Below are positions 2,880 through 52,500 of a DNA stretch of 52,679 nucleotides, piece by piece. How positions within the stretch are numbered: the stretch's first letter is position 1; every line of letters begins with the position of its first letter. The stretch is taken from contig JABDAW010000003.1 in assembly GCA_013288905.1 (NCBI GenBank), forward strand, positions 1 to 52,679. The letters are read 5' to 3'. Made by a program: the position numbers and the translations under genes. The DNA comes from Bacteroidota bacterium (GTDB taxonomy: Bacteria > Bacteroidota > Bacteroidia > AKYH767-A > JABDAW01). Below the pieces are notes generated by a model. It was given only the letters and a program-made list of their open reading frames with translations, was not told the origin of the DNA and did not search any database.

Positions 2880-3127
2880 CCAATTATGCAAGGGGGAATA
2901 CAAATTATGCAAGGTCGGAAGACAATTATGCAAGGTCGGAAGCAAATTATGCAAGGTCGGAAGGAAAATATGCAAGGTGGGATGGAAAATATGCAAGCGC
3001 GGAAGACAATTATGCAAGGTCGGAAGGACAATATGCAAGGTCGGAAGGACAATATGCAAGGTCGGAAGCAAATTATGCAAGGTCGGAAGGACAATATGCA
3101 AGGTCAGAAGGACAATATGCATCGCCA
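2880..3127. repeat. tandem array A: 12 copies of a 21-bp unit (wATGCAAGGTCGGAAG + 4-5 variable nt)
   Basis: TATGCAAGG recurs at 2885, 2906, 2927, 2948, 2969, 2990, 3011, 3032, 3053, 3074, 3095 and 3116 with no indels. Confidence 0.95.
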
Positions 3128-4498: not shown

Positions 4499-4579
4499 CA
4501 GCCATGAAATCCCTATACCTTTATACTAACGAATTGCAATGGCAAATTGTCAATTCTCAATTGTCAATTGTCAATTAAA

Positions 4580-5924: not shown

Positions 5925-7765
5925 TACAGAGCGTTTCAACAAATCGGAGATATATCATCATCGCAATCTTTCTTTCAGTAGGGATAATCTATCTTGCGAG
6001 ATTTTTTTATATTCAAGTGATTGATGATAGTTATATTAAGTCGGCACAACATAATTTCCTTCGCCCTGTAACACAGTTCCCTTCGCGTGGTTTGGTATAT
6101 GATCGTAAGGGAAAGCTCCTGGTTTATAACGAACCTGTCTATGATTTAATGGTAACGCCGAAGTTGATCAAAGGCATGGATACCGCGGAGTTCTGTGCAT
6201 TGATAGGTATTGCCAGGGAGGAATTTGATAAGAAGCTAAGGCTTGCAAAGAAATATTCCAGAGACCTTCCTTCCCCTTTTGAAAAGCAATTATCCAAGGA
6301 GACTTATGGGACTTTGATGGAGAAGCTGGATGATTTCCCCGGCTTCTTTGTTCAGCCAAGAACATTAAGAAGATATAATGATAGGACTGCTGCGCATCTT
6401 CTTGGAGACATTGGGGAAGTGGATTCTGCAACCGTGAAGGATAGTAAATATTATCGTGATGGAGATTACATTGGCAAGAGTGGAATAGAATTGACGTATG
6501 AGCCAGAGCTGCGAGGGAAGAGGGGTTCCAAGCTCATGATGGTTGATGTTCATGGCAGATTAATGGGAAGTTTTGAGAATGGAAAGTATGATACCTTAGC
6601 TGAAGGAGGTGAGAATCTGACAACTTCTATTGATGCAGGTTTGCAATCTTATGGGGAAGAATTAATGCAGAATAAAATAGGAGGTATCGTTGCCATAGAA
6701 CCTTCAACAGGAGAGATATTGGCAATGGTTTCATCACCTTCTTATGACCCAAATCTATTGGTTGGAAGGTTGCGAGCACAGAATTATGGGAAACTCCTCA
6801 CGACGGACAATAATCCTTTGTATAATCGGGCTTTACTTTCCTCATATCCTCCTGGATCGACATTCAAAATTATCATGTCCTTGGTGGCACAACAAGAGGG
6901 AGTTCTTTTTCCTGAAACCCGCTATCCATGCGCGATGGGGTATCCTCCCGGTGGTGGTAAACCTGCTTGTGAAGCGCATCCTTCCCCATGCGATCTCGCT
7001 ATGGCGATTACCTATTCCTGCAATTCTTATTTCTGTTATGTATTCAAAAGTGTTTTGGATAAGAAGGGTTTCAATTCCTTTGAAGAGAGCTTCACGAGCT
7101 GGCGAAAACATATCCTTAGTTTTGGCTTGGGAAGGAAATTAGGCGTTGATCTTCCTACTGAATTAGGGATTGGCGTTCCTACCATCGAACATTACGATAA
7201 AGTCTTTGGCGAAGGGCATTGGAAGTCTTCTACGATCCTCTCTCTTGCCATCGGTCAGGGTGAAATGGGAGTGTCTCCGCTGAAAATGGCAAACGTTATG
7301 GCTACCGTTGCAAACAGGGGATACTACTACATTCCGCATGTTGTAAAAGCTATTGGTGATAAGCAATTTCAATTTGAGAAATATACTACTAAAAACTATA
7401 CTGATGTTGAATCTAAATACTTCGATATCGTGATTGTTGGTATGGAAGATGTTGTACAAAGCGGTACTGCGGCAGCATCTAAAGTTAGTGGTATTGATAT
7501 TTGTGGAAAGACAGGTACTGCACAGAATCCGTCTGGAAAATCACACTCGGTATTCGTAGGTTTTGCTCCAAAGGATAATCCTAAAATAGCTATAGCAGTT
7601 GTTGTTGAACATGCGGGCTGGGGTGCTGAATGGGCTGCCCCTATTGCCTCCCTGATGATTGAAAAATATTTGACAGGAACTATCACTCGCCCTGAAATTG
7701 AGAAGAGAATAAAGAATGGAGTCATACTTCCAGTTCCCAAAGTAGCCGTTAATAATGAGAGATAA
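5921..7765 (+). CDS. mrdA: penicillin-binding protein 2 (transpeptidase)
   Basis: PBP dimerisation and transpeptidase domains (STFK, KTGTA motifs). Operon context. Confidence 0.9.
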   Translation: MIQSVSTNRRYIIIAIFLSVGIIYLARFFYIQVIDDSYIKSAQHNFLRPVTQFPSRGLVYDRKGKLLVYNEPVYDLMVTPKLIKGMDTAEFCALIGIAREEFDKKLRLAKKYSRDLPSPFEKQLSKETYGTLMEKLDDFPGFFVQPRTLRRYNDRTAAHLLGDIGEVDSATVKDSKYYRDGDYIGKSGIELTYEPELRGKRGSKLMMVDVHGRLMGSFENGKYDTLAEGGENLTTSIDAGLQSYGEELMQNKIGGIVAIEPSTGEILAMVSSPSYDPNLLVGRLRAQNYGKLLTTDNNPLYNRALLSSYPPGSTFKIIMSLVAQQEGVLFPETRYPCAMGYPPGGGKPACEAHPSPCDLAMAITYSCNSYFCYVFKSVLDKKGFNSFEESFTSWRKHILSFGLGRKLGVDLPTELGIGVPTIEHYDKVFGEGHWKSSTILSLAIGQGEMGVSPLKMANVMATVANRGYYYIPHVVKAIGDKQFQFEKYTTKNYTDVESKYFDIVIVGMEDVVQSGTAAASKVSGIDICGKTGTAQNPSGKSHSVFVGFAPKDNPKIAIAVVVEHAGWGAEWAAPIASLMIEKYLTGTITRPEIEKRIKNGVILPVPKVAVNNER

Positions 7766-9017
7766 TAAAGGCATTCTCCAAAACATAGATTGGATAACCA
7801 CATCGCTTTATTTCCTCCTCATTACCATGGGTTGGATTTGTATTTATGCCGCCGATTATAACGAAGAGCACAGTAAAGTTTTTGACTTCACACAGAATCA
7901 TGGGAAGCAGCTTATGTGGATTGGTGGCTCATTAATTATAGCATTAATCTTTCTTATATTAGATGGGAAATTTTATTCCGCCTTCGCATATATTGTTTAT
8001 GGAATTACGATTGTTCTTCTCATTGCTGTTCTCTTGGTTGGAAGAAAAGTAAAGGGTTCTGTGTCATGGTTTGAAATCGGAAGTTTTAAGCTGCAGCCCG
8101 CAGAGTTCGCGAAGTTTGCCACTACATTGGTACTTGCAAAGTACTTGAGTAATATGAACATTAAATTGAATGATACCAAAACAAAACTGGTAGTCTTTAC
8201 AATTCTTTTCGTTCCTATTATTCTTATCATTTTGCAGAATGCAACGGGGTCCGCATTGGTCTATCTTTCTTTTGTATTTGTGCTTTATCGTGAAGGTTTA
8301 TCAGGCAATTATTTATTGTTAGGATTCATTGCCATCGTCATATTTATCTTAGCACTGCTGGTAGATAAATTGACGCTGATAATCATCTTTGCTTCCATAA
8401 TCTTTATTGTTTTTTTATTAGCCAGAAAGAATAAACGAAACATCCTATCATTGCTTGGAATATTCGCTATTTGTTCGGGGATGGTATTGAGTGTGGATTA
8501 TGTCTTTAATCATGTCCTTCATGAATATCAAAGAGGAAGAATAAATGTCCTTCTCGGCAAGGAACAAAACATTAAAGGTTCAGGTTGGAATGTGCATCAA
8601 AGTATGATTGCTATTGGTGACGGCGGATTTTTTGGTAAAGGATTTCTTAAAGGAAGCCAGACCACATTTGATTTTGTTCCTAAACAAAGTACGGACTTTA
8701 TATTCTGCACAGTAGGTGAGGAATTTGGGTTTGTGGGAGTGTTTGTTGTTATCAGTTTATTCTTGTTTTTATTAGTCCGAATCATACAACTTGCCGAACG
8801 ACAGCGAAGTTCTTTCTCAAGAATCTATGGATATGGCGTTGCTTCTATTCTCTTCTTCCATGTTATGATTAATATCGGCATGACCATCGGATTAGCACCG
8901 GTGATAGGCATTCCACTACCATTCTTCACTTATGGAGGCTCTTCTTTATTGGCATTCACGATGATGCTTTTTGTGTTTATTAGATTGGATGCACATCGGT
9001 TGCAGATATTAGGTTAG
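7755..9017 (+). CDS. rodA: rod shape-determining protein RodA (SEDS family)
   Basis: FtsW/RodA/SpoVE-type polytopic membrane protein. Overlaps the mrdA stop. Confidence 0.9.
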   Translation: MRDNKGILQNIDWITTSLYFLLITMGWICIYAADYNEEHSKVFDFTQNHGKQLMWIGGSLIIALIFLILDGKFYSAFAYIVYGITIVLLIAVLLVGRKVKGSVSWFEIGSFKLQPAEFAKFATTLVLAKYLSNMNIKLNDTKTKLVVFTILFVPIILIILQNATGSALVYLSFVFVLYREGLSGNYLLLGFIAIVIFILALLVDKLTLIIIFASIIFIVFLLARKNKRNILSLLGIFAICSGMVLSVDYVFNHVLHEYQRGRINVLLGKEQNIKGSGWNVHQSMIAIGDGGFFGKGFLKGSQTTFDFVPKQSTDFIFCTVGEEFGFVGVFVVISLFLFLLVRIIQLAERQRSSFSRIYGYGVASILFFHVMINIGMTIGLAPVIGIPLPFFTYGGSSLLAFTMMLFVFIRLDAHRLQILG

Positions 9018-9655: not shown

Positions 9656-9664
9656 AGTGGTGTA

Positions 9665-9722
9665 AAGGTATAGGGTATAAGGGTATAAGGGTATAAGGGT
9701 ATAAGGGTATAAAGGGTATAAA
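9665..9722. repeat. octamer tandem repeat (GGGTATAA)x6-7
   Basis: GGGTATAA at 9673, 9681, 9689, 9697, 9705 and 9714. Fills the 69-bp gap up to the gldA ATG. Confidence 0.9.
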
Positions 9723-9724
9723 TT

Positions 9725-10639
9725 ATGTCAGTAAAAGTTGTTGAGATTTCTAAGGTTTATGGGAAGCAGAATGCTTTGGATGGTGTTTCGTTTGAGGTAA
9801 ATGCTGGTGAAGTTCTTGGGTTTCTTGGTCCTAATGGTGCGGGCAAATCTACCATGATGAAGATACTGACTTGCTTTATTCCACAGACTTCCGGGACTGC
9901 TTTTGTTTGTGGACATGATGTGAATGAAGAGCCGCTTGAGGTGAAGAAATGCGTGGGATATTTGCCGGAGAATAATCCTTTATATCATGATATGTATGTC
10001 AAGGAATATCTTGAATTCATTGCTGGCATACAAGGATTGAAAGGGAGTAAAACCGCAAGGGTTAAAGAGATGATTGGTATGACCGGGCTTGAGGTGGAGC
10101 AACATAAAAAGATAGGTGCGCTTTCTAAAGGGTATCGGCAACGAGTCGGACTGGCACAGGCTCTGATTCATGATCCTAAGGTGTTGATTCTTGATGAACC
10201 TACTTCAGGATTAGACCCTAATCAACTTACTGAAATAAGAAGTTTGATTAAGAATATCGGCAAGGAAAAGACGGTGATATTTTCTACTCACATTATGCAG
10301 GAAGTTACTGCTATATGCAGCAGAGTGGTGATTATTAATAAAGGAAAAATTGTTGCTGATGATCCTATAGAAGTTCTTAAACAACATGCCGTGAGTAAGG
10401 CTGTCATATCTGTAGAATTTGATGCTCCGACATCAAAGACTGCCTTGAAAAAGATTGCCGGTGTTAGCGAAGTAGAACTGATTAAAGACAATCAATGGCA
10501 ATTATATTCCGATGCTGAAACTGATATTCGCAAAGAGCTTTTCAACTTTGCCATTGAGAATAAATTAGCCATTATTACTATCAAAAAAGAGGAGCAGAAT
10601 TTGGAGGAAATCTTTCATGAATTGACGAAGAATAGTTGA
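9725..10639 (+). CDS. gldA: gliding motility-associated ABC transporter ATP-binding subunit GldA
   Basis: Walker A GPNGAGKST, ABC signature and Walker B. GldA-like length and sequence. Confidence 0.8.
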   Translation: MSVKVVEISKVYGKQNALDGVSFEVNAGEVLGFLGPNGAGKSTMMKILTCFIPQTSGTAFVCGHDVNEEPLEVKKCVGYLPENNPLYHDMYVKEYLEFIAGIQGLKGSKTARVKEMIGMTGLEVEQHKKIGALSKGYRQRVGLAQALIHDPKVLILDEPTSGLDPNQLTEIRSLIKNIGKEKTVIFSTHIMQEVTAICSRVVIINKGKIVADDPIEVLKQHAVSKAVISVEFDAPTSKTALKKIAGVSEVELIKDNQWQLYSDAETDIRKELFNFAIENKLAIITIKKEEQNLEEIFHELTKNS

Positions 10640-12576: not shown

Positions 12577-13065
12577 ATGAAAAAACTAAAAATTTATTTA
12601 GATACTTCAATAATTAATTTCTTATTTGCAGATGATACTCCCGACTTCAAAAGAAACACAGAAGACTTCTTTGATAATTATTTAAAGAAAGGAATTTACG
12701 ATTGTCTTGTTTCTGATGTAGTGTTTGATGAGATAAATAGAACGGAGGAGGATGAAAAACGATTGAAACTTTTACAGGTTATAAAAGATTATAATATTCC
12801 TTATGATTCTTTCAATAAGGAGGCAGAACGACTGGCTCACATTTATATCAAAGATGGAGTTATTCCAGTTAAGAAATTTGATGATGCCAGGCATATAGGG
12901 TTGGCAACTACTAACAGTTTTGATATTCTACTATCCTGGAACTTTAAGCATTTGGCAAACGTAAACAAAAGAATAAAAATTAAAATTATTAATGAACGCG
13001 AAGGATATTTCTATCCTCTTGATTTGGTAACACCTATACAACTAATATATGATGAAAACGATTAA
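12577..13065 (+). CDS. PIN-domain protein (VapC-like toxin candidate)
   Basis: IYLDTSI acidic N-terminal motif, DARHIGLAT, SWNFKH. 162 aa. Confidence 0.7.
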   Translation: MKKLKIYLDTSIINFLFADDTPDFKRNTEDFFDNYLKKGIYDCLVSDVVFDEINRTEEDEKRLKLLQVIKDYNIPYDSFNKEAERLAHIYIKDGVIPVKKFDDARHIGLATTNSFDILLSWNFKHLANVNKRIKIKIINEREGYFYPLDLVTPIQLIYDEND

Positions 13066-13249
13066 AGACTATCCGGTATCAAAAGCTCTTGAAGAAGTTT
13101 GGGAAATGAAAGAAAAAGCATCTGAAGCTACTAAAGATTTATCTTTTGAGGAATTACAAAAGCATTACAAAGAAGTAGCAGAAGAATCTGCCAAACTTTT
13201 AAATGCCAAGATTATTCCACTTGCGAATGGCTCTTTTAAATTCGGGTAA
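13049..13249 (+). CDS. hypothetical 66-aa protein
   Basis: ORF overlaps the PIN stop by 17 bp. Helical, charged composition. Coding status unproven. Confidence 0.35.
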   Translation: MMKTIKDYPVSKALEEVWEMKEKASEATKDLSFEELQKHYKEVAEESAKLLNAKIIPLANGSFKFG

Positions 13250-13318
13250 TCCATCCCTCCTTTCCTTCACAAACCTCCCCAAAGACCTGCCTCCTCCTTC
13301 CTCCTCCTCTTCCCGTCG

Positions 13319-13377
13319 TGGTGAAAGCAAGTAGCCCTTCTCCTAAAAAATACTTTTCTTTGCAACAAAAATAAAGG
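13319..13377 (+). repeat. dispersed repeat copy 3 (first ~60 bp only)
   Basis: TGGTGAAAGCAAGTAGCCCTTCTCCTAAAAAATACTTTTCTTTGCAA is shared with copies 1 and 2. Confidence 0.85.
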
Positions 13378-13409
13378 TAAGGAGATGAAAGAAAAGGGTA
13401 ATAAATTCA

Positions 13410-14024
13410 ATGATGAAAATTCTTAAATATTTTTCTCTATTATTAATTGTTATTGGATTTATTGGTCTCTTGGGTTGTGGATTAATATTTACTACTATAC
13501 TTGATTACAAATATGAATTACCAATTGCATGGAATGCTCAAACAACAATGAGTAGTGAGAACAAGTTTTATGTTGGATTGCCTGATTATGGAAAGATTCA
13601 AGTGTATGATATTAATGGGAAGTTTCTATTCAACTTTAAAGTTTATGGTTGGGGTGGAGAATTTACATTTAAAATAATAGGTGATACTATTCAAGTAAAA
13701 ACTGTACATAAGGATTTATTAAGTTTTTATGATTTAAAGGGAAGAGCTATTAGCAGTAAACATATTTACTTTAGTCATGATGACTATAGAGATTCACCTT
13801 CAACATCTGATCCATCACATACTATAATTAATGGATATTATATAAGAACTGAAACTGTTATCATTCCAAAAATCATAATTGAAAAAGATGGTAAGACAAC
13901 TATCATTAAATCCCCTTTATACCTGAATTTATTAAAGGCTCCTTTTCTTTCAGGTCCTTTATTTTTCTTTGGAATAATTATCTTTTTTTCAATAAGAAAT
14001 AAAATGAAGAATCAAGTTAAATAA
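13410..14024 (+). CDS. hypothetical membrane protein
   Basis: N- and C-terminal hydrophobic helices. 204 aa. Confidence 0.5.
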   Translation: MMKILKYFSLLLIVIGFIGLLGCGLIFTTILDYKYELPIAWNAQTTMSSENKFYVGLPDYGKIQVYDINGKFLFNFKVYGWGGEFTFKIIGDTIQVKTVHKDLLSFYDLKGRAISSKHIYFSHDDYRDSPSTSDPSHTIINGYYIRTETVIIPKIIIEKDGKTTIIKSPLYLNLLKAPFLSGPLFFFGIIIFFSIRNKMKNQVK

Positions 14025-14073: not shown

Positions 14074-14101
14074 CCTAATTCCTAATTTTTAATTCCTAAT
14101 T
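14074..14101. repeat. AT-rich dispersed element CCTAATTCCTAATTTTTAATTCCTAATT
   Basis: 28-nt sequence identical to 23569-23596. Related copies at 23236-23270, 23363-23390, 25060-25087 and 42735-42762. Confidence 0.9.
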
Positions 14102-14472: not shown

Positions 14473-14510
14473 ATTATTATTTTATACTTATTTTTCTATT
14501 CCATTCCCCA

Positions 14511-14772
14511 AAAAGACGAAAGTGCAGCCGTATGGTTAGAAACGGCTGCCCTTTCTTTAGAAACGGCTGCACTATCCTTATATATGGCGGAACAATGCAT
14601 GGAAACGGCGGAAGTATCCTTACATTGTTCCGCCGTTTCTTTACAAACGGCGGAACTATCCTTACAAACGGCAGAACAATGCATGGAAACGGCGGAAGTA
14701 TCCATACATAGTTCCGCCGTTTGTAAAGAAACGGCGGAAGAATGCTTGTATCCTTCCGCACTTTCGTCTTTT
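14511..14772. repeat. tandem array B: 11 x 21-bp units (AAACGGCGGAA core, some inverted), bounded by a 15-bp inverted repeat
   Basis: AACGGC at 14541, 14562, 14604, 14646, 14667, 14688 and 14730. Inverted cores at 14627 and 14711. AAAAGACGAAAGTGC at 14511-14525 pairs with GCACTTTCGTCTTTT at 14758-14772. Confidence 0.9.
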
Positions 14773-16031: not shown

Positions 16032-16427
16032 ATGAAATCAAAGGATAAACAGAGTAGAGCATCTTTTTCGAAAGGGTTAATAACAATATCTGTTATTACT
16101 TTATTATTCTGTCAAATCATACAGGCACAAAGTTTAAGAATAGAAATATTTAATAGAACAGGGTATGATTTAGATTCGGTTTATATGGACTATAATTATG
16201 TTGGTTCAATAAAAAAAGATTCATCGGTATTAGTTTTGGATTGTAAAGAAATAGTGATGGATAGTGGAATGCCAATAGGTCGTCCAGAGGGAATTATTAA
16301 AAACAAAGTAAAGACTTCTGAACCACAATATCTCTGTGGAACAGAAATTTATTCAGTAAAAGAAGGGGATTTTAAATTTGATATTAAAATAATGGAAGAG
16401 GCATCAAATTATAGATTATATTGGTAA
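16032..16427 (+). CDS. hypothetical secreted protein
   Basis: Internal ATG of ORF 15918..16427 gives MKSKDKQ... with a signal-peptide-like hydrophobic segment. Confidence 0.5.
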   Translation: MKSKDKQSRASFSKGLITISVITLLFCQIIQAQSLRIEIFNRTGYDLDSVYMDYNYVGSIKKDSSVLVLDCKEIVMDSGMPIGRPEGIIKNKVKTSEPQYLCGTEIYSVKEGDFKFDIKIMEEASNYRLYW

Positions 16428-23282: not shown

Positions 23283-23356
23283 GGACCCGTAGTTCAACTG
23301 GATAGAATGACAGATTTCGGCTCTGTTGGTTGGGGGTTCGAATCCCTCCGGGTTCA
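23283..23356 (+). tRNA. tRNA-Arg (anticodon TCG)
   Basis: 74-nt cloverleaf. Acceptor GGACCCG/CGGGTTC, anticodon stem ACAGA/TCTGT with loop TTTCGGC, T-loop TTCGAAT. Confidence 0.85.
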
Positions 23357-23395
23357 CAAATCAATTAGGAATTAGGAATTAAAAATTAGGGCTTA

Positions 23396-23533: not shown

Positions 23534-23599
23534 ATAGCCAAAATTAGGAATTAAGTTGTTATATTATTCCTAATTCCTAATTTTTAATTCCTAATTGAC

Positions 23600-25720: not shown

Positions 25721-28700
25721 ATGAATACCCGCCTCCTTATCGTCATCCTCACCTCTGCCATCTGCCATCTTACCTCTTCCATCCAAGCCCAGGATAATCT
25801 TGTAACGAATGTAAAATTCCATTCCATAGGTCCCTCCATCATGAGCGGAAGGGTGGTGGATGTGGATGTTTGCCCCGATGATCCTACGCATTTTTATGTC
25901 GCTTATGCCTCCGGTGGCTTGTGGGTTACTTATAATAACGGGCAGAGTTTTGAGCCGCTCTTCGACCATGAGGCAGTGATGACTATCGGCGATATTGCTG
26001 TGGATTGGAAGCATGGCGAAACCATCTGGATTGGTACGGGAGAGAACAATTCGAGTCGCTCTTCTTATGCCGGTCTTGGCATGTATAAGAGCACCGATAA
26101 AGGCAAGACCTGGCAGCATAAAGGCTTGGAAGATTCACATCATATCGGGCGGGTTATCCTTGATACTAATGATGATGCTGGTCGGGATTTGCAATCCCGT
26201 CCCATATATGTAGCGGTTATCGGGCATCTTTTCACGCCCAATGATGAACGTGGAGTTTTCAAATCTACCGATGGCGGCAACACCTGGAAGAAGACTTTAT
26301 TTGTTGATAATAACACTGGTGCGATTGATTTAATTATGGATCCTTCCAACCATAATATTCTCTATGCAGCGATGTGGCATCGTGAACGAAAGCCCTGGAA
26401 TCTAAAGGAAAGTGGAGCATCATCAGGCATTTATAAAAGCATGGATGCAGGCGAGACTTGGACCTTGATGACTACTAAAGAAAGCGGCTTCCCTACCGGT
26501 GAAGGTGTTGGCAGAATAGGGCTTTCCATTTATGCTGGAGATATGGAGCAAGTTATTAATCCTTCAAAAGGGAATAATAAAGATGATGACAATTCCAAGC
26601 CCAAGCATGTCATGACGAAGTTTGTGCCTCGTCCCATCTATGCTGTGGTTGATAATCACGACCTTCGTGAGAAGAAAAAAGATGATAAAAAGAAGGGCTT
26701 GACGAAGGATACTTTAAGAACAATGTCCAAGGAATCTTTCCTTTCTTTGAAAGATTCTTTGATAGAAAAGTATCTCAAGGATAATGATTTCGATGAGGAA
26801 TATTCTGTAGAGCGGGTTAAGAATATGATTCGCACAGACAGCATCAAACCCGCAGCCCTTGTGGAATATCTCGAAGATGAGAACGCCCAATTATTCGATA
26901 CAGAGATTAAAGGTGCAGAGGTTTATCGCTCTGATGATGCCGGCAAGACCTGGAAGAAAACCCATGAAGGTTACCTCGATCATGTCTTCAATACTTATGG
27001 ATATTATTTTGGTCAGATACGGGTTTCCGCTACGCGGGATTTGCAATCCAGCGACCTTAAGATTTATATCTATGGAGTTCCTTTCCTGAAGTCGGAAGAT
27101 GGCGGCAAGACCTTCAAGTCCATTGATGCGGCGAATACGCATGGAGATTATCATGCCCTGTGGCTGAATCCCAACAGGGACGGGCATCTTATTGTAGGTA
27201 ATGACGGTGGCATCAACATTTCTTATGATGATGGCAAGACTTATTTTAAAGCAAATACTCCTGCCGTCGGACAGTTTTATTCCGTGAATGTGGACATGGA
27301 AAAGCCCTACAATGTCTATGGTGGCTTGCAGGATAATGGCGTCTGGTATGGTCCCTCGACCAACAAAGAAAACACCGGCTGGCATGAAGAAGGCGAGTAT
27401 CCTTTCAAGAGAATTATGGGTGGCGATGGCATGCAGGTAGTCGTGGATACCCGCGACAACGCTACTGTCTACACAGGTTATCAGTTCGGGAATTATTTCA
27501 GAGTGAATAGAAATACTGGAGAAAACAAATACATCACTCCAAAGCATAAGTTAGGCGAAAGACCTCTGCGCTGGAACTGGCAAGCACCCATCTGGCTCTC
27601 CAAACACAATCAGGATATTGTTTATTTCGGCAGTAATAAATTCCATCGTGCCATGAACAAAGGCAATGACTTCCAGACCCTCACCGGAGACCTTACTAAT
27701 GGCGGTATCAAAGGGAATGTGCCTTATGGAACCATTACAGCCATTACTGAAAGCCCTCTTAAATTCGGCTTGCTTTATTGCGGGACAGATGACGGGAATG
27801 TTTATAGATCGGATGATGTGGGTTATAACTGGAAGAAGATTACACAAGACTTAAGGCGTAATTTATCTGACCACTTTGATATTGAAATGGAAATTAGAGA
27901 TGTAAATCCAGAGTTAAAAGCAACAACTCCTAAAGAAGGATTTACCTGCACATTATATTTAAGTCGAATAATTGCATCTTCATTTGATACTAGCACTGTC
28001 TATTTATCTTTCAATGGAAAAATATTTGATGATTTCAAAGCCTATCTATTTAAGTCTGATGATTATGGAAATGCTTTTAAACCTATTGGAACAGATTTAC
28101 CAAATGAACCAATCAACGTTGTAAAAGAAGACCCGAAGAATAAAAACATTCTCTATGTAGGCACCGACCATGGCGTGTATGTCTCCTTAAATAAAGGCAA
28201 GAACTTCATGAAGATGACGGGTGATTTCCCGAATGTGGCGGTGCATGATTTGGTGATTCATCCAAGAGATAATGACCTGGTGGTGGGCACTCATGGGCGT
28301 TCTATCTACATTGCCCATGTCGGCGAGTTGCAGCAATTGAATGATACTTTGATGGCTAAGGATATATCTATTTTCAAGATAGATGCCATTCATTACAACA
28401 AGAACTTAGGCAAGATTCCTAATCAATGGAGCGAGCCACATGAGACCAAAAAGCAATTCGCATTCTATGTAAAAGAAAAAGGAATATCTACCCTGCGCAT
28501 CAAGACAGATAAAGACCTTTTATTAAAGGAAATAAAAGATACCAGTGCTGCCGGCTTGAATTATGTGAACTATGATTTAAGCATTGATTCCACAAATCTT
28601 TCCAAGTATCAAACCTTCATTAACGAAAACAAGAAACTTAATGATGAAGAAAAGAAAATAGAGCGTGCCGATAATAAAAAGTATTACCTCAAGCCTGGAA

Positions 28701-28819
28701 AATATATCCTTGAAATAGAAACTCAAAAAGGAATTAAATCCAAACAGGAATTCATCATTAAAACCGAGGATAAGAAGGAAGGGCATGAAGGAATTCCAAA
28801 GCCATTGGATAAAGATTAA
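25721..28819 (+). CDS. secreted BNR/Asp-box (sortilin/VPS10-like) beta-propeller repeat protein
   Basis: Signal peptide. Repeated S-x-D-x-G-x-T-W Asp-boxes (STDKGKTW, STDGGNTW, SMDAGETW, SDDAGKTW, SEDGGKTF...). Confidence 0.8.
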   Translation: MNTRLLIVILTSAICHLTSSIQAQDNLVTNVKFHSIGPSIMSGRVVDVDVCPDDPTHFYVAYASGGLWVTYNNGQSFEPLFDHEAVMTIGDIAVDWKHGETIWIGTGENNSSRSSYAGLGMYKSTDKGKTWQHKGLEDSHHIGRVILDTNDDAGRDLQSRPIYVAVIGHLFTPNDERGVFKSTDGGNTWKKTLFVDNNTGAIDLIMDPSNHNILYAAMWHRERKPWNLKESGASSGIYKSMDAGETWTLMTTKESGFPTGEGVGRIGLSIYAGDMEQVINPSKGNNKDDDNSKPKHVMTKFVPRPIYAVVDNHDLREKKKDDKKKGLTKDTLRTMSKESFLSLKDSLIEKYLKDNDFDEEYSVERVKNMIRTDSIKPAALVEYLEDENAQLFDTEIKGAEVYRSDDAGKTWKKTHEGYLDHVFNTYGYYFGQIRVSATRDLQSSDLKIYIYGVPFLKSEDGGKTFKSIDAANTHGDYHALWLNPNRDGHLIVGNDGGINISYDDGKTYFKANTPAVGQFYSVNVDMEKPYNVYGGLQDNGVWYGPSTNKENTGWHEEGEYPFKRIMGGDGMQVVVDTRDNATVYTGYQFGNYFRVNRNTGENKYITPKHKLGERPLRWNWQAPIWLSKHNQDIVYFGSNKFHRAMNKGNDFQTLTGDLTNGGIKGNVPYGTITAITESPLKFGLLYCGTDDGNVYRSDDVGYNWKKITQDLRRNLSDHFDIEMEIRDVNPELKATTPKEGFTCTLYLSRIIASSFDTSTVYLSFNGKIFDDFKAYLFKSDDYGNAFKPIGTDLPNEPINVVKEDPKNKNILYVGTDHGVYVSLNKGKNFMKMTGDFPNVAVHDLVIHPRDNDLVVGTHGRSIYIAHVGELQQLNDTLMAKDISIFKIDAIHYNKNLGKIPNQWSEPHETKKQFAFYVKEKGISTLRIKTDKDLLLKEIKDTSAAGLNYVNYDLSIDSTNLSKYQTFINENKKLNDEEKKIERADNKKYYLKPGKYILEIETQKGIKSKQEFIIKTEDKKEGHEGIPKPLDKD

Positions 28820-28848
28820 TGAATTTCATTAAAAGGTGTATCTTTTGC

Positions 28849-29085
28849 TCCGAAAACTGTTTCTATCGTTCCGAAAGCTGTTTCTATTGTTCCGAAAGCT
28901 GTTTCTATCGTTCCGAAAGCTGTTTCTATCGTTCCAATAGCTGTTTCTATTACTCCGAAAGATGTTTCTTCTGCTCCAAAAGATGTTTCTTCTGCTCCAA
29001 AAGATGCATCTTTTACTCCAAAAGATGCATCTTTTACTCCAATAGAAGCATCTTTTGGAACGATAGAAGCATCTTTTGCTCTTGA
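28849..29085. repeat. tandem array C: about 11 x 21-bp units drifting from TCCGAAAGCTGTTTCTATCGT to TCCAAAAGATGCATCTTTTAC
   Basis: TCCGAAA/TCCAAAA recurs at 28849, 28870, 28891, 28912, 28933, 28954, 28975, 28996, 29017 and 29038, with a degenerate unit at 29059. Confidence 0.9.
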
Positions 29086-29166
29086 ATTTATACCTAAATT
29101 TAGCAAGGGGTCTTTTATCATCATCTTTTTTTTAACAAAAAAGGTTTCTATTGATAAAAAAATTTG

Positions 29167-29174
29167 TAGTTTTG
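29167..29174 (+). promoter_or_regulatory. -7 promoter box TAGTTTTG
   Basis: 60 bp upstream of the ATG at 29234, between array C and the gene. Confidence 0.45.
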
Positions 29175-29233
29175 TCCTCGCAAAAATAAATATAAAATCT
29201 AATAAAAAGTAAACTAAATTAAATTAAAAAGAA

Positions 29234-30154
29234 ATGAGAAAAACAGTACTTATCGCAGCATTAATTTGCTTATTCGCTATGCCATTCGCCTACGGGCAGG
29301 CAATCCCTGATCAAGGTTTTGAAACCTGGACGACACATGGGACAACTTTTACCTACCAGGTTCCAACCGGTTGGGCTACCATTGATTCATTTACCTCGCA
29401 GGCTGCTGTTGTCGGATTGGTATCACAAGATTCTTTTTATCATCACGGCGGAAATTATTCTATTAAACTTCAAAGCAAAACTGTTATTACAGCGGTTGTG
29501 CCTGGTGCAGCATGCTCTGGAATTATTCATCTTGTGAGTCCTTCACCACTTACTTACACTATTCTTGGGGGGTTTCCTGTGTCCGCAAAGCCAAATTTCT
29601 TAGCCGGATGGTTCAGGGATTCATTGCCTGGTGTTGACACCTCTTATATCGTTGCCTTTTTCACCAAGTGGGATACCAATTTGGGCAAAAGAGATACTGT
29701 TGCCTATGGCGGTTTAGCTATAGATTCAAATCATTTGTCATGGACACCTTTTCAATTGGCTATTCTTAGTGATTCTTTGAATCCGGTAACTCCTGATACG
29801 GGTGTAGTAGTGTTTTATTCAGGAAAAGGATCCGGCGGAGTTGTCGGTTCTACATTGTGGGTTGATGACCTTGGTTTCACAACTGGGATAGGTGAATTAG
29901 ATCCACTTAATGGGAATTATGACCTATATCCTAACCCTGCTTCTCAAAATCTTTATATCGTGAATAATAACCTTTTCAAGAAAATTTCAATTATCAATGT
30001 TTATGATGAAATGGGCAGGAAGGTGAATACTTCTAACTTGAATGAAGATGTTTCGGTACTGAATGTAAAATCATTATCGGCAGGGATCTATTTCTATCAG
30101 ATTGTAAGCCTTAATCAAACGCTGCTCAAGACCGGAAAGTTTATTGTTGAATAA
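29234..30154 (+). CDS. secreted protein with T9SS C-terminal sorting domain
   Basis: Signal peptide. C-terminal YPNPASQNLYI...GIYFYQIV...GKFIVE. Confidence 0.7.
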   Translation: MRKTVLIAALICLFAMPFAYGQAIPDQGFETWTTHGTTFTYQVPTGWATIDSFTSQAAVVGLVSQDSFYHHGGNYSIKLQSKTVITAVVPGAACSGIIHLVSPSPLTYTILGGFPVSAKPNFLAGWFRDSLPGVDTSYIVAFFTKWDTNLGKRDTVAYGGLAIDSNHLSWTPFQLAILSDSLNPVTPDTGVVVFYSGKGSGGVVGSTLWVDDLGFTTGIGELDPLNGNYDLYPNPASQNLYIVNNNLFKKISIINVYDEMGRKVNTSNLNEDVSVLNVKSLSAGIYFYQIVSLNQTLLKTGKFIVE

Positions 30155-42731: not shown

Positions 42732-42827
42732 GTCAATTAGGAATTACGAATTAGGAATTAGGATGTGGGCATGACTCATAATTTATAATTCCTTTCAGCG
42801 TTGAATCCTCCATAAATAATTAATTCT

Positions 42828-44516: not shown

Positions 44517-44578
44517 AAGGCTATTTTGAATCAAATTAAAACGGTGAAAGTTAATATCGTAAGCAAGATTTACTTTAT

Positions 44579-44790
44579 AAATACCTCCGCTGATGCCGTA
44601 ATTACCTCCGCAAATTCTGTCAATACCTCCGCTGATGGCAAAAATACCTCCGCAATTCCCGTCAATACCTCCGCTGATGCCAAGAATACCTCCGCAATTC
44701 CCGTCAATACCTCCGCTGATGCCAAAAATACCTCCGCAATTCCCGTCAATACCCTCCGTTGATGCCGAAAATACCTCCGCTAATTCAATC
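44579..44790. repeat. tandem array D: 10 x 21-bp units (AATACCTCCGC core) in a 42-bp alternating pattern
   Basis: ACCTCC at 44583, 44604, 44625, 44646, 44667, 44688, 44709, 44730, 44751 and 44773. A 1-nt insertion sits in the ninth unit. Confidence 0.9.
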
Positions 44791-51362: not shown

Positions 51363-52070
51363 TTAGAATTGCACCAAAGTGCCAACTGCCTCGCCTTCGA
51401 CAATTCTCAACAAATTTCCTTTCTGATTCATGTCAAACACTATAATCGGAAGCTTATTTTCATTGCATAGAGTGAAGGCGGTAAGGTCCATAATATTTAA
51501 TCCCTGTTTATAAACTTCATCGAAAGAGATTGTTTGATACTTCGTCGCTGTCTTGTCCTTTTCAGGGTCGGCAGAATAGATTCCATCCACACGAGTTCCC
51601 TTCAATACCACATCAGCTTCAATTTCTATGGCACGCAGGCAAGCTGCCGTATCAGTCGTAAAATAAGGATTTCCAGTGCCTGCACCGAAGATGACCACGC
51701 GACCTTTTTCGAGATGACGGATTGCTCGACGCTTGATATAAGGCTCACAAATCTGTTCCATTTTAATGGCAGATTGCAGGCGAGTACTCACATCTATCCG
51801 TTCCAAAGCGGACTGCAATGCCATGCTGTTGATCACCGTAGCGAGCATACCCATATAATCTCCTTGCACCCTGTCTATACCCCCTTCTTCTGCCTGAATC
51901 CCTCGAAAAATATTCCCGCCACCTATCACGATAGCCACCTGAATACCTTGGTCAACTGCATTCTTGATTTCATTGGAATATTGATTAAGCATATCATGAT
52001 CAATGCCAAATTGTTTAGACCCCATCAGCGATTCGCCGCTCAATTTCAGTAAGATTCTTTTGTATTTCAT
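51363..52070 (-). CDS. pyrH: UMP kinase
   Basis: [18 protein letters not shown] and amino-acid-kinase fold motifs. Confidence 0.95.
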
Positions 52071-52098
52071 CAGGTGGCTTTAGTAATTGTCAAGAGGG

Positions 52099-52106
52099 CA
52101 AAAGTA
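52099..52106 (-). promoter_or_regulatory. -7 promoter box TACTTTTG
   Basis: Minus-strand match 29 bp upstream of the pyrH ATG. Confidence 0.5.
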
Positions 52107-52201
52107 CAAAATAAACAGTAAGACACGAATGCCATTTTCTGCTTTGCAATGAAATGCCTATTATTAGATACTAAAAAAGTCGCAGGAGACATTAAACCCC
52201 T

Positions 52202-52437
52202 ACCAGTTTGAACTGCAAAGAGTTTAGTTTGAACTGTGCGGGGACCAGTTTGAGCTGGTAGGTATTTAGTTTGAACTGGTGAGGGACCAATTTGAACTGG
52301 GACGGATATATTTTGAACTGGGACGGGTATTATTTGAACTGGAGGTGTACCAGTTTGAACTGGGAGGTGTACCAGTTTGAACTGGGACGGATATTGTTTG
52401 AACTGCTGACAAAATTGTTTTAACTGGAAGGTGGATG
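52202..52437. repeat. tandem array E: 11 x 21-bp units with core (CCAG)TTTGAACTGG
   Basis: TTTGAACT recurs at 52207, 52228, 52249, 52270, 52291, 52312, 52333, 52354, 52376, 52397 and 52418. One 1-nt insertion. Confidence 0.9.
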
Positions 52438-52460
52438 ACTTCATTCTAACGTCAGGCAAT

Positions 52461-52500
52461 AAAAAAACCACGAATCCTATATACGCAGGATTCGTGGTTT
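52461..52500 (-). terminator. rho-independent terminator of the partial upstream gene
   Basis: AAACCACGAATCC/GGATTCGTGGTTT 13-bp stem. T-run on the minus strand. Confidence 0.7.

Follow-up and report, generated by a model that had tools for sequence, protein, structure and literature searches.

The tandem array downstream of the BNR gene (array C) is tentatively read here as non-coding DNA, one of a lineage-specific set of 21-bp intergenic minisatellites, any role of which would likely act on DNA and depend on the period. We assign this reading a probability of roughly 40%. Array C is one of five 21-bp arrays (A to E) in the window, i.e. the whole 52.7-kb stretch of DNA analysed (Table 1), and its main significance lies in its membership in an array population that extends through one uncultured clade of Bacteroidota.

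Direct reading of the sequence resolves array C into 11 full 21-bp units and one degenerate unit (28828-29081), all located between genes. TRF returned scores of 139-234 at periods of 21, 42 and 63, among them an entry for 28849-28990 with period 21 and a score of 191. In a unit-by-unit identity matrix, adjacent units matched at 17-21 out of 21 positions, as opposed to 10 for the two ends, a degree of repetition far beyond chance. Units U1-U4 follow the pattern TCCGAAA(A/G)CTGTTTCTAT(C/T)GT and U5 reads TCCAATAGCTGTTTCTATTAC, while each type III unit contains the perfect 16-nt palindrome AAAAGATGCATCTTTT (28999-29014 and 29020-29035). Degenerate unit 0 is closer to the late units (15/21 identical positions with U7-U9) than to U1-U4 (11-13/21). 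The sequence-only reading of this DNA had described a tandem array arising by local duplication, neighbouring units being most alike, and the matrix bears this out. Its unit readings and palindromes were likewise recovered, and so were the array start about 30 nt behind the BNR stop codon (first full unit at 28849), the end of the array 149 nt before the ATG at 29234 and the TAGTTTTG box in between. The array C sequence recurred unchanged in contigs assembled from four DNA runs, and contigs of other runs contained pieces of variant arrays. As a side observation, 21-bp arrays break short-read assemblies.

The changing sequence along the array had been interpreted as drift with polarity, as if from a growing end. 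It turned out to be a dyad: the left end returns in reverse-complement form at the right end of array C, around central units that are self-complementary. The last units, previously taken to be degraded, are inverted copies of the first units. For instance, TTCTATCGTTCC, found repeatedly at the left unit junctions (28861-28872, 28903-28914 and 28924-28935), has its exact reverse complement in GGAACGATAGAA at 29057-29068, and two inverted arms of 79 nt (28916-28994 and 28998-29076) are 73% complementary. A syntenic ortholog is a plain array of direct repeats without a gradient of this kind. The 7-bp inverted repeat that brackets array C does not reach significance when taken alone.

Both genes flanking array C have counterparts in relatives. 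The upstream product matches Pfam Sortilin-Vps10 (3.3e-25) together with BNR repeats, and its orthologs in the related loci L013 and L093 are 85% identical, the range among the three genomes including the window being 85-87%. The downstream gene has a syntenic counterpart in L093 that is 34% identical. The promoter block, which contains the Bacteroidota -7 box (29167-29174), is the same in syntenic L093 save two variable bases of this box, embedded in surrounding DNA that is unalignable; it probably serves the downstream T9SS-cargo gene. A terminator scan found no canonical terminator, i.e. a G+C-rich stem-loop followed by a U tract, in 28819-29234, in agreement with the earlier statement that the upstream gene lacks a separate terminator hairpin. 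The L093 array terminates in a 10-bp hairpin (GTTACGGAAT-CCA-ATTCCGTAAC) with a T6 run 6 nt further on, which the terminator scan did not flag.

Table 1. Features of array C, its surroundings and the other 21-bp arrays of the window
Feature	Coordinates	Strand	Description
Array A	2881-3121	none	11.5 units of AAATTATGCAAGGTCGGAAGG, between divergent genes
Array B	14536-14747	none	~10 units of TTAGAAACGGCGGAACTATCC, some inverted
Upstream gene	25721-28819	+	1032-aa BNR/Asp-box, sortilin-VPS10-type protein; stop TAA 28817-28819
102-aa heptad ORF	28816-29124	-	TIETAFG / AEETSFG / VKDASFG; gene call of a metagenome pipeline
Degenerate unit 0	28828-28848	none	ATTAAAAGGTGTATCTTTTGC; begins 9 nt 3' of the BNR stop
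7-bp inverted repeat bracketing array C	28834-28840, 29090-29096		AGGTGTA, TATACCT; outermost stem of the + strand fold
U1-U5, type I	28849-28953	none	TCCGAAAGCTGTTTCTATCGT; U5 is a variant
U6-U7, type II	28954-28995	none	TCC(G/A)AAAGATGTTTCTTCTGC
U8-U9, type III	28996-29037	none	TCCAAAAGATGCATCTTTTAC; dyad centre of array C
U10-U11, type IV	29038-29081	none	TCCAATAGAAGCATCTTTTGG, AACGATAGAAGCATCTTTTGC; inverted type I
Conserved promoter block	29163-29186	+	TTTGTAGTTTTGTCCTCGCAAAAA; pattern match and comparison with L093
Downstream gene	29234-30154	+	306 aa, T9SS C-terminal sorting domain; Pfam Por_Secre_tail 7.7e-12
Array D	44578-44786	none	10 units, 42-bp alternating super-unit, 5' of a T9SS-cargo gene
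Array E	52202-52433	none	11 units, conserved core TTTGAACTG

A census of the clade yielded 24 arrays in about 189 kb of related metagenome genomes, corresponding to one per ~8 kb and 2.6% of the DNA. All 24 are intergenic, with periods of 21 or 42 and unit sequences unrelated to one another. Relatives whose BNR identity is 64-67% yielded no 21-bp array in 68.5 kb, and the array-bearing genomes belong to the group with a BNR identity of at least 72%. The clade limit is sharp, the arrays being frequent inside and absent just outside. Across 93 sequences (1.57 Mb), TRF reported 21 arrays of period 21 and 1-6 of each other period. All tandem duplications with a period of at least 15 bp in ~146 kb of clade DNA had periods of 21, 42 or 63, with a 22-bp unit within array E as the one exception, and none had a period of 19, 20 or 23. 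Each unit type was restricted to its own array in ~146 kb, with no dispersed single units, and no two-copy 21-bp 'seed' duplications were found outside arrays. The units are built from a contiguous conserved core and a variable block. A composition of 21 as three heptamers was considered and rejected, as self-similarity at a shift of 7 was the lowest of all shifts among 19 unit types. Heptamer arrays also occur in the window and in related Bacteroidota loci.

At the orthologous site, not every relative lacks an array or has one of a different period: an array of the same 21-bp period directly follows the BNR stop in L013 (13038-13202) and L093 (3653-3883), as it does in the window. The three arrays comprise 8-12 units each, and the units agree at only 10-11 of 21 positions. 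Position, period and size are common to them; unit sequence, strand, ORF and predicted fold differ. Neutral sites are probably saturated among these three genomes. A second orthologous site is provided by the arrays adjoining the Flavo-1 RNA in L002 and L004, again with unrelated units. At the array D site, no array was present at the syntenic position in relatives with 68% and 62% identity, showing that a particular site can do without its array. At 72% identity the synteny of the BNR locus is lost, and those loci are thus unusable as orthologous sites.

The DNA of several arrays is predicted to be strongly curved. In a Bolshoy-type wedge model, arrays D, C and E were the most curved 230-bp segments in the 52.7 kb. 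Setting the period to 20 or 22 abolished most of the curvature in most arrays; array C changed little, with a ratio of end-to-end distance to contour length of 0.598 at period 21, 0.625 at 20 and 0.704 at 22. With 125 random wedge tables and helical repeats of 10.3-10.7, the median percentile of array C was 0-2%, and it ranked in the lowest 5% for 60-76% of the tables. When real units were compared with column-permuted ones, only 3 of 15 arrays were extreme in curvature and no consistent difference emerged. Thus, the bend itself shows no sign of optimisation. The uniform period could equally reflect inheritance from a founder element or a mutational ruler.

Array C may have arisen and persisted as follows. 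Slipped-strand mispairing, unequal exchange or gene conversion would homogenise each array, keeping the period while the sequence turns over. The array C unit appears to be a quasi-palindrome, from which strand template switching could have generated the perfectly palindromic central units and a right end that is an inverted copy of the left. As the period is what persists, any function likely acts on DNA in a period-dependent manner. With exactly two helical turns per unit, small unit bends would add in phase, and the prediction for array C is a spacer with strong curvature and preserved phase that separates the BNR 3' end from the conserved T9SS-cargo promoter. Its role might be that of an upstream element of curved DNA, or of an insulator, topological or transcriptional, that keeps transcription units apart. 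In this genome the dyad would also permit a long hairpin in a read-through transcript, a feature that is not conserved. The L013 array (13038-13202) lies between convergent genes, where a role upstream of a promoter makes no sense. A role of array C as a DNA-structural spacer is plausible but unproven.

Nearly as likely as a structural spacer is a selfish or neutral array devoid of function. An ancestral 21-bp minisatellite, for example a BrickBuilt-like MITE, may have spread at the base of the clade, or a process working in fixed 21-bp steps may have produced the arrays; unequal exchange would then maintain the period while sequences drift past recognition, and 21 bp would be a frozen accident. 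The sharp clade boundary, the complete sequence turnover at orthologous sites, the presence or absence of an array at a syntenic site and the finding that in most arrays real units bend no more than permuted ones are all in line with this possibility. So is a weak residual similarity: although unit similarity between arrays is near chance, 6 of 120 pairs agree at 13 or more of 21 positions (about 1.9 expected), the joint motif information of the units exceeds that of shuffles by ~3 sd, and array E and the L004 array at 13153-13430 have GGGACGGATAT in common. These similarities are suggestive of a common ancestry of units across arrays, albeit not conclusive. A spreading element is harder to reconcile with the lack of common flanks, leader or tail, terminal inverted repeats, dispersed units and seed duplications. 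No common flanks were discernible by eye, and of 16 arrays only 3 had significant flanking inverted repeats, which differed from one another. Moreover, useless DNA is normally deleted from bacterial genomes, yet the arrays account for 2.6% of the sampled DNA, and the BNR-site array persists in three genomes whose proteins are 85-87% identical.

An improbable alternative is that array C acts as RNA. Transcribed as the BNR 3' UTR, it would form a long imperfect hairpin that ends or stabilises the transcript in a REP-like manner or is processed by RNase III. Its immediate proximity to the BNR stop, with no canonical terminator thereafter, and the + strand fold of -89.2 kcal/mol (z = -9.9; z = -7.0 for a further fold of array C) fit this idea, as does the terminal hairpin with T6 of the L093 array. 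Inverted flanks resembling terminator stems enclose array B (14510-14525 and 14758-14772; fold of -141.9 kcal/mol, z = -13.5) and the L013 array at 16217-16321, and about 40% of arrays exceed column-permuted controls in self-complementarity. However, the array C fold is not conserved among the orthologous arrays, given a z of +0.65 for the syntenic L093 array and a marginal excess of structure in L013, and over half of all arrays show no excess structure. Array E has a minus-strand terminator (52465-52500) on one side and the pyrH promoter on the other, and the L002 array likewise lies 3' of a canonical terminator and 5' of the next promoter; both are therefore probably outside any mRNA. At the gathering threshold, the sole Rfam match in the window was one tRNA, and a permissive search returned only sub-threshold, miRNA-hairpin-like matches for array C (18-34 bits vs cut-offs of 54-140). 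The hairpin at the end of the L093 array escaped the terminator scan.

Lower still we rate an iteron-like platform, in which the unit core, partly palindromic, would be the site of a DNA-binding protein and the 21-bp spacing would align the sites along the same helix face for cooperative binding. In plasmid iterons and in centromere arrays such as F sopC and R1 parC, direct repeats spaced by roughly two helical turns, some of them with a palindrome at the core, are aligned in this way; such an array is located beside a rep or par gene and has one sequence. Our arrays share with them the direct repetition and a period of two helical turns, and the contiguous core next to a variable block in each unit (e.g. 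TTTGAACTG in array E) as well as the dyad symmetry of many cores would suit protein binding. They differ in being numerous, dissimilar in sequence and scattered among chromosomal housekeeping genes. The neighbours in the window are genes for the BNR protein, T9SS cargo, tRNA synthetases and the products of mreC, PBP2, rodA and pyrH, an ordinary chromosomal setting, and no rep or par genes were found near the arrays among the window ORFs scanned. As the core differs in each array, the number of specific proteins required would run from dozens into the hundreds. A shared motif CGGA/CGGAA(C), noticed by eye in arrays A-E and L013, was marginal at best in the first set of arrays (shuffling p = 0.45, 0.12 and 0.03 for k = 4, 5 and 6) and was dropped, being missing from 8 independent new arrays.

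We judge the 102-aa ORF to be a spurious gene call, and a genuine gene for a small heptad-repeat protein is very hard to defend. Its frame is open over the entire array and was called by the pipeline, the substitutions between units seem conservative (E/D, T/A, A/S, F/I), a minus-strand TAnnTTTG box (29181-29188) precedes the ORF start by 57 nt, and pipeline ORF calls also cover some other arrays. Against this, the protein has no Pfam match, a search of 5.8 billion proteins gave no homologue at E ≤ 0.01, and of 17 codon changes between units 4 are synonymous, as compared with a chance expectation of 25%. A 3-periodicity of unit variation is absent (p = 0.985, n = 15; p = 0.89, n = 23). Instead, variable columns are contiguous (lag-1 autocorrelation of 0.163 vs -0.05, p < 0.001), i.e. 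the variation between units sits in contiguous blocks rather than in codon phase. Six-frame translation revealed three more frames open across array C, as expected from a 21-nt unit, and the similarity of peptides from both strands is explained by the dyad of the DNA. The strand of the array ORF is not conserved, minus in the window but plus in L093, and in L013 the frame is broken and the array is spanned by no ORF. A coding array C hence failed on six-frame translation, Pfam, homology, codon phase, synonymous counts and the ORFs of the orthologs. Gene callers convert 21-bp arrays into orphan 'hypothetical proteins'.

Our full-text search of the literature found no description of arrays with a 21-bp period in Bacteroidota. 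The closest counterpart is BrickBuilt of Porphyromonas gingivalis, a strictly intergenic minisatellite MITE of spacer-less 23-nt tandem units in up to ~23 copies (PMC4596501). The BrickBuilt unit consists of a conserved and a variable half, attracts spurious ORF calls and often adjoins T9SS (PorSS CTD) genes; it is a single family in which one 23-nt unit occurs at 19 loci with a common leader and tail and IS5-like terminal inverted repeats (PMC4596501). The 21-bp arrays resemble it in their Bacteroidota host, intergenic location, spacer-less units of about two helical turns with a conserved and a variable part, spurious ORFs and T9SS neighbours. Unlike BrickBuilt, each array has its own unit, there are no common flanks or inverted ends, and the period is 21 rather than 23. 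A MITE or transposon was rejected, given that common flanks, inverted ends and dispersed units are all missing. A CRISPR array was likewise dismissed, as the units abut without spacers and their variable blocks (7-12 nt) represent variants of one another.

REP and BIME elements of Proteobacteria are extragenic and palindromic, often located at the 3' ends of genes and sometimes clustered in alternating orientation. Proposed roles are mRNA stabilisation and, as topological elements, the binding of gyrase or IHF. REPs follow only one or a few consensus sequences, which a RAYT transposase mobilises and which are dispersed in hundreds of copies. Arrays B and C include inverted units as well, and an imperfectly palindromic unit of 20-40 nt, as in REP/BIME, is present in arrays B, C, E and some others but not in most arrays. 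In contrast to REP/BIME, units are confined to single arrays, most of which are purely direct repeats, and neither RAYT nor any other transposase was detected among the 30 window ORFs scanned. The PATCs of C. elegans are minisatellites tuned to the helical repeat with a reported mechanical effect (curvature, insulation) that is not sequence-specific; they are eukaryotic, Helitron-derived, of 10-bp periodicity and act on chromatin (bioRxiv 10.64898/2026.08.08.743475). The likeness to our arrays is conceptual only, in that the period fits the helical repeat. As lineage-specific intergenic tandem repeats, the arrays also resemble the STRR heptamers of cyanobacteria and other heptamer arrays of Bacteroidota; unlike STRR heptamers, they have a period of 21 instead of 7 and no internal 7-bp periodicity.

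To our knowledge, the bacterial intergenic repeats described so far, such as REP/BIME, MITEs like BrickBuilt, STRR and VNTRs, are families defined by sequence. The common property of the present arrays is their period, and they make up 2.6% of the sampled DNA in a compact genome without a common sequence. At one locus, an array was kept over species-level divergence while its sequence was fully replaced. A more far-reaching proposal, which we consider rather doubtful, is that the clade keeps hundreds of sequence-unrelated arrays, locked to two helical turns in period, as 'mechanical' elements, i.e. curved, phase-preserving spacers or insulators maintained by selection on shape or by a clade-specific factor; the latter would be a chromatin protein or an enzyme that generates repeats by a 21-bp ruler. 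Array C would then be one such element, its period rather than its sequence being conserved at the BNR locus. If selection is responsible, the arrays would represent a prokaryotic case in which DNA shape or helical phasing is the functional unit. If a mutational ruler is responsible, they point to an unknown repeat-generating activity.

Array C, the 21-bp tandem array between the BNR/sortilin gene and a T9SS-cargo gene, is one of five 21-bp arrays that TRF detected in the window, all of them intergenic and each with a different unit; when the gaps over 300 bp that separate ORFs of 110 aa or more are counted, 5 of 13 hold such an array. Sequenced from a JGI soil or freshwater metagenome, the window (38% G+C) represents ordinary chromosome of a bacterium of the Bacteroidota that has a T9SS; its genes include mreC, PBP2, rodA, pyrH, a tRNA, two aminoacyl-tRNA synthetases and several T9SS-cargo genes. 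Relatives were sampled as loci (L-numbers) chosen by homology to the BNR protein or to the DUF4139 protein preceding array D. The arrays of period 21/42 found there are intergenic save one, a genuine 14-aa coding repeat in L014. This 42-bp repeat, DGIPRKDLGIKY(D/I)(I/M)N, lies in a 331-aa protein (7465-8460, minus strand); no other 21n-period repeat was found within a real gene of the clade sample. The intergenic arrays total 24 in about 189 kb of metagenome contigs picked around two gene families, averaging one every 7.9 kb and making up 2.6% of this DNA; genome-wide numbers are extrapolations, because short-read assemblies break or collapse at arrays.

Coordinates of array C, related arrays and neighbouring features
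Feature	Locus	Position (strand)	Remark
BNR/sortilin-type gene, 1032 aa	window	TAA stop at 28817-28819	
Array C, degenerate unit	window	28828-28848	3' of BNR stop
Array C, 11 full 21-bp units	window	28849-29079	
Array A	window	2881-3121	intergenic; TRF
Array B	window	14536-14747	intergenic; TRF
Array D	window	44578-44786	intergenic; TRF
Array E	window	52202-52433	intergenic; TRF
Further period 21/42 arrays	L013, L093		BNR 85% identical
Further period 21/42 arrays	L014, L001, L002, L004		BNR 72% identical
Further period 21/42 arrays	L095, L096, L099		DUF4139 70-62% identical
Flavo-1 RNA (RF01705)	L002	11018-11126 (-)	67 bits
Flavo-1 RNA (RF01705)	L001	17174-17282 (-)	67 bits
Flavo-1 RNA (RF01705)	L004	12993-13098 (-)	67 bits

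An exhaustive scan of clade DNA over periods 9-66 revealed, among tandem duplications with a period of at least 15 bp, only periods of 21, 42 and 63, bar a 22-bp unit within array E; 21-bp duplications of just two copies did not occur on their own. In relatives whose BNR protein is 64-67% identical, four loci (68.5 kb) contained no arrays, about nine being expected at clade density, and about 75 loci from more distant Bacteroidota, Ignavibacteria and others (1.4 Mb) contained no 21-bp arrays; the few 'period 21' matches in distant loci are heptamer arrays or acidic coding repeats. Thus, the phylogenetic boundary is sharp. Arrays of (AATTAGG)n, about four copies each, occur in the window at 14074-14101 (-), 23363-23390, 23566-23596 (-) and 42735-42763, and at about 10965-10985 in L002 and 12935-12955 in L004, usually directly 3' of a gene or tRNA end; the window tRNA (23283-23356) has heptamer arrays on both flanks. 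Other heptamer arrays are at 4545, 21394, 23237 and 25060, and loci of more distant Bacteroidota (L057, L060, L069, L084, L092) often have heptamer and octamer arrays too. An 8-bp array (GGTATAAG, 7.9 copies, 9659-9721) fills the 70-bp gap just upstream of an ABC-transporter ATPase gene at 9725.

On array C, TRF reported periods of 21, 42 and 63 with scores of 139-234. The drift along the array described in the sequence-only reading is visible as a gradient in the unit-by-unit identity matrix: U1-U4 share 19-21 of 21 positions, U6 and U7 20, U10 and U11 17, U8 and U9 are identical, and the two ends agree at only 10. The 16-nt palindromes, the 149 nt to the next ATG and the TAGTTTTG box 3' of the array (29167-29174) had been described correctly. 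The last units had been taken for decayed, which does not hold, as the left-hand units join in TTCTATCGTTCC, and GGAACGATAGAA (29057-29068) is its exact reverse complement. Because of this complementarity and of inverted arms of 79 nt located by a repeat finder (28916-28994 and 28998-29076, 73% complementary), the unit order runs from left-type units through a self-complementary centre to inverted left-type units. Overall, the earlier observation is confirmed and its interpretation partly supported. Slipped-strand mispairing, unequal exchange or gene conversion would keep the units of an array alike; quasi-palindrome template switching, a known mutational route, may have given array C its perfect palindromes and inverted right end. 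In searches with window 28818-29060 (runs X1 and X6), other contigs of the same and related metagenomes carried array C-like variant units, e.g. TCCAATAGAAATAGCTATTGC, and one contig had 2 differences to the last 130 nt of the BNR gene, followed by unrelated sequence right after the stop. These variant contigs point to strain-level turnover of the region.

The BNR proteins of the window, L013 and L093 are 85-87% identical pairwise, and in each case a 21-bp array of 8-12 units begins 9-65 nt after the BNR stop. L093 is fully syntenic, with BNR gene, array and Por_Secre_tail gene; in L013 the BNR ortholog is followed by a convergent DUF1361 gene, and an array between convergent genes argues against a purely promoter-upstream role. 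The units (TCCGAAAGCTGTTTCTATCGT in the window, AACTTATTCGAGGTAGTTCCG in L013, AAAAGAGCGGTTACGGAAnnn in L093) agree at 10-11 of 21 positions, and only TTCCG/CGGAA is common, on opposite strands. At a second site, arrays with unrelated units lie just upstream of the conserved Flavo-1 RNA gene in L002 and L004. Thus, presence, position, size and period of an array can persist while its sequence is replaced. The 21-bp arrays are also gained or lost at sites: in syntenic relatives (68% and 62% identity), the gaps corresponding to array D measure just 142 and 58 bp and hold no array. The Flavo-1 RNA itself precedes an ABC ATPase gene, the array being 55-126 bp upstream of the RNA 5' end in both species. 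Downstream of array C, the promoter block TTTGTAnnTTTGTCCTCGCAAAA is conserved in L093, while the DNA around it is not alignable. Two Bacteroidota-type -7 boxes, TAGTTTTG (+) and TATTTTTG (29181-29188, -), are divergent, 6 bp apart and form an inverted repeat, a block likewise conserved in L093.

Of all properties, only the period is shared by every array and retained between orthologous sites. As 21 bp equal two helical turns, the net bends of successive units add up in phase. Under a Bolshoy-type wedge table, no 230-bp windows in the 52.7 kb were more curved than arrays D, C and E, with predicted end-to-end/contour ratios of 0.39, 0.60 and 0.78 versus a background mean of 0.93. Remodelling at period 20 or 22 abolished most of the curvature in most arrays: the ratio rose from 0.10 to 0.76 and 0.71, respectively, for the L002 array and to 0.83 and 0.75 for array D. 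That of array C barely shifted (0.63 at period 20, 0.70 at 22). When 125 random wedge tables were combined with helical repeats of 10.3-10.7, the median percentile was 0-2% for array C and 0-0.5% for array D; within such models, the curvature predicted for native arrays is independent of parameters. We tentatively favour a period-dependent, DNA-structural role (probability about 0.4). Permuting the columns did not systematically yield less bent units, so nothing indicates optimisation of the bend itself. This result also suits the main rival, which we rate as only somewhat less probable: a selfish or neutral array free of function, its period inherited or mutationally imposed.

Considerably less probable is an RNA hairpin or terminator. 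In its favour, array C as single-stranded RNA folds at -89.2 kcal/mol on the plus strand (z = -9.9 versus dinucleotide shuffles) and -81.3 kcal/mol on the minus strand (z = -7.0), an excess that survives a stricter null permuting the 21 columns identically across all units (z about -3, p = 0.02-0.03). No canonical terminator was found between the BNR gene and the next ATG, and the L093 array ends in a 10-bp hairpin followed by T6. On the other side, Rfam at gathering thresholds detected a tRNA alone in the window, with only sub-threshold miRNA-hairpin-like matches on array C, and the array of L093, a simple direct repeat, shows no excess fold (z = +0.65). Moreover, array E and the L002 array each have a canonical terminator on one side and the next promoter on the other, a placement more in keeping with a spacer or insulator acting as DNA than with an RNA function. 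Significant flanking inverted repeats, present in just 3 of 16 arrays (B, L013 16217-16321 and L002), look like terminator-like stems with the array inside or beside them. Array B, which resembles a terminator hairpin with an array-expanded loop, contains inverted units within the repeat AAAAAGACGAAAGTGC ... GCACTTTCGTCTTTT (14510-14525 / 14758-14772), and its whole region folds at -141.9 kcal/mol (z = -13.5); L013 16217-16321 is laid out likewise. In the long arrays L013 8611-9088, L095 2074-2352 and L099 1787-2041 (up to 23 units), the unit type changes along the length or two types alternate, and in the first, 8-bp hairpins can form within most single units, which would line up as a string of 21-nt hairpins.

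An iteron-like protein-binding array is considered improbable. No units were found dispersed elsewhere, each being confined to its own array, and the arrays do not share flanks. CGGAA(C) was rejected as a recurrent motif, being marginal by shuffling and missing from eight independent new arrays. No internal 7-bp periodicity was found in the 21-bp units.

That array C is a real heptad protein gene, as the metagenome pipeline call of a minus-strand ORF (28816-29124) implies, is very unlikely: the heptads look protein-like, but three other frames are open too, and the like peptides on both strands follow from the DNA dyad. Neither a Pfam match nor a homologue (E <= 0.01) was found for the ORF, of 17 distinct codon changes between neighbouring units 4 were synonymous (25% expected if random), the ORF called in L093 is on the other strand, and no ORF spans the L013 array. 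Between-unit variation showed no 3-periodicity (15 arrays, p = 0.985; 23 arrays, p = 0.89); variable columns are contiguous (lag-1 autocorrelation 0.163 vs -0.05, p < 0.001), giving a conserved core and a variable block. Through array E runs a 133-aa ORF (52070-52471, minus strand), open across the frame-shifting 22-bp unit; its end, TGATG, overlaps the pyrH start codon and mimics translational coupling, probably by chance.

Among described elements, the BrickBuilt MITE of P. gingivalis comes closest; this 23-nt intergenic minisatellite often lies beside T9SS genes and draws spurious ORF calls (PMC4596501). BrickBuilt is one sequence family with leader, tail and IS5-like inverted ends, whereas the clade arrays are without these. 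Genes for T9SS-secreted proteins (Por_Secre_tail or CHU_C) often adjoin arrays (A, C and D of the window, L093, and L095 5447-5588 and 9069-9185), as has been reported for BrickBuilt. This may be a mere effect of the length of the gaps that surround these genes (for the window, p is roughly 0.07). The literature searched contained no account of comparable arrays with a 21-bp period. In summary, the arrays are shown to be non-coding and locally homogenised, their sequence turning over with the period kept, and array C is best seen as belonging to a clade-specific class of non-coding minisatellites, not described before, whose period is locked at 21 bp.
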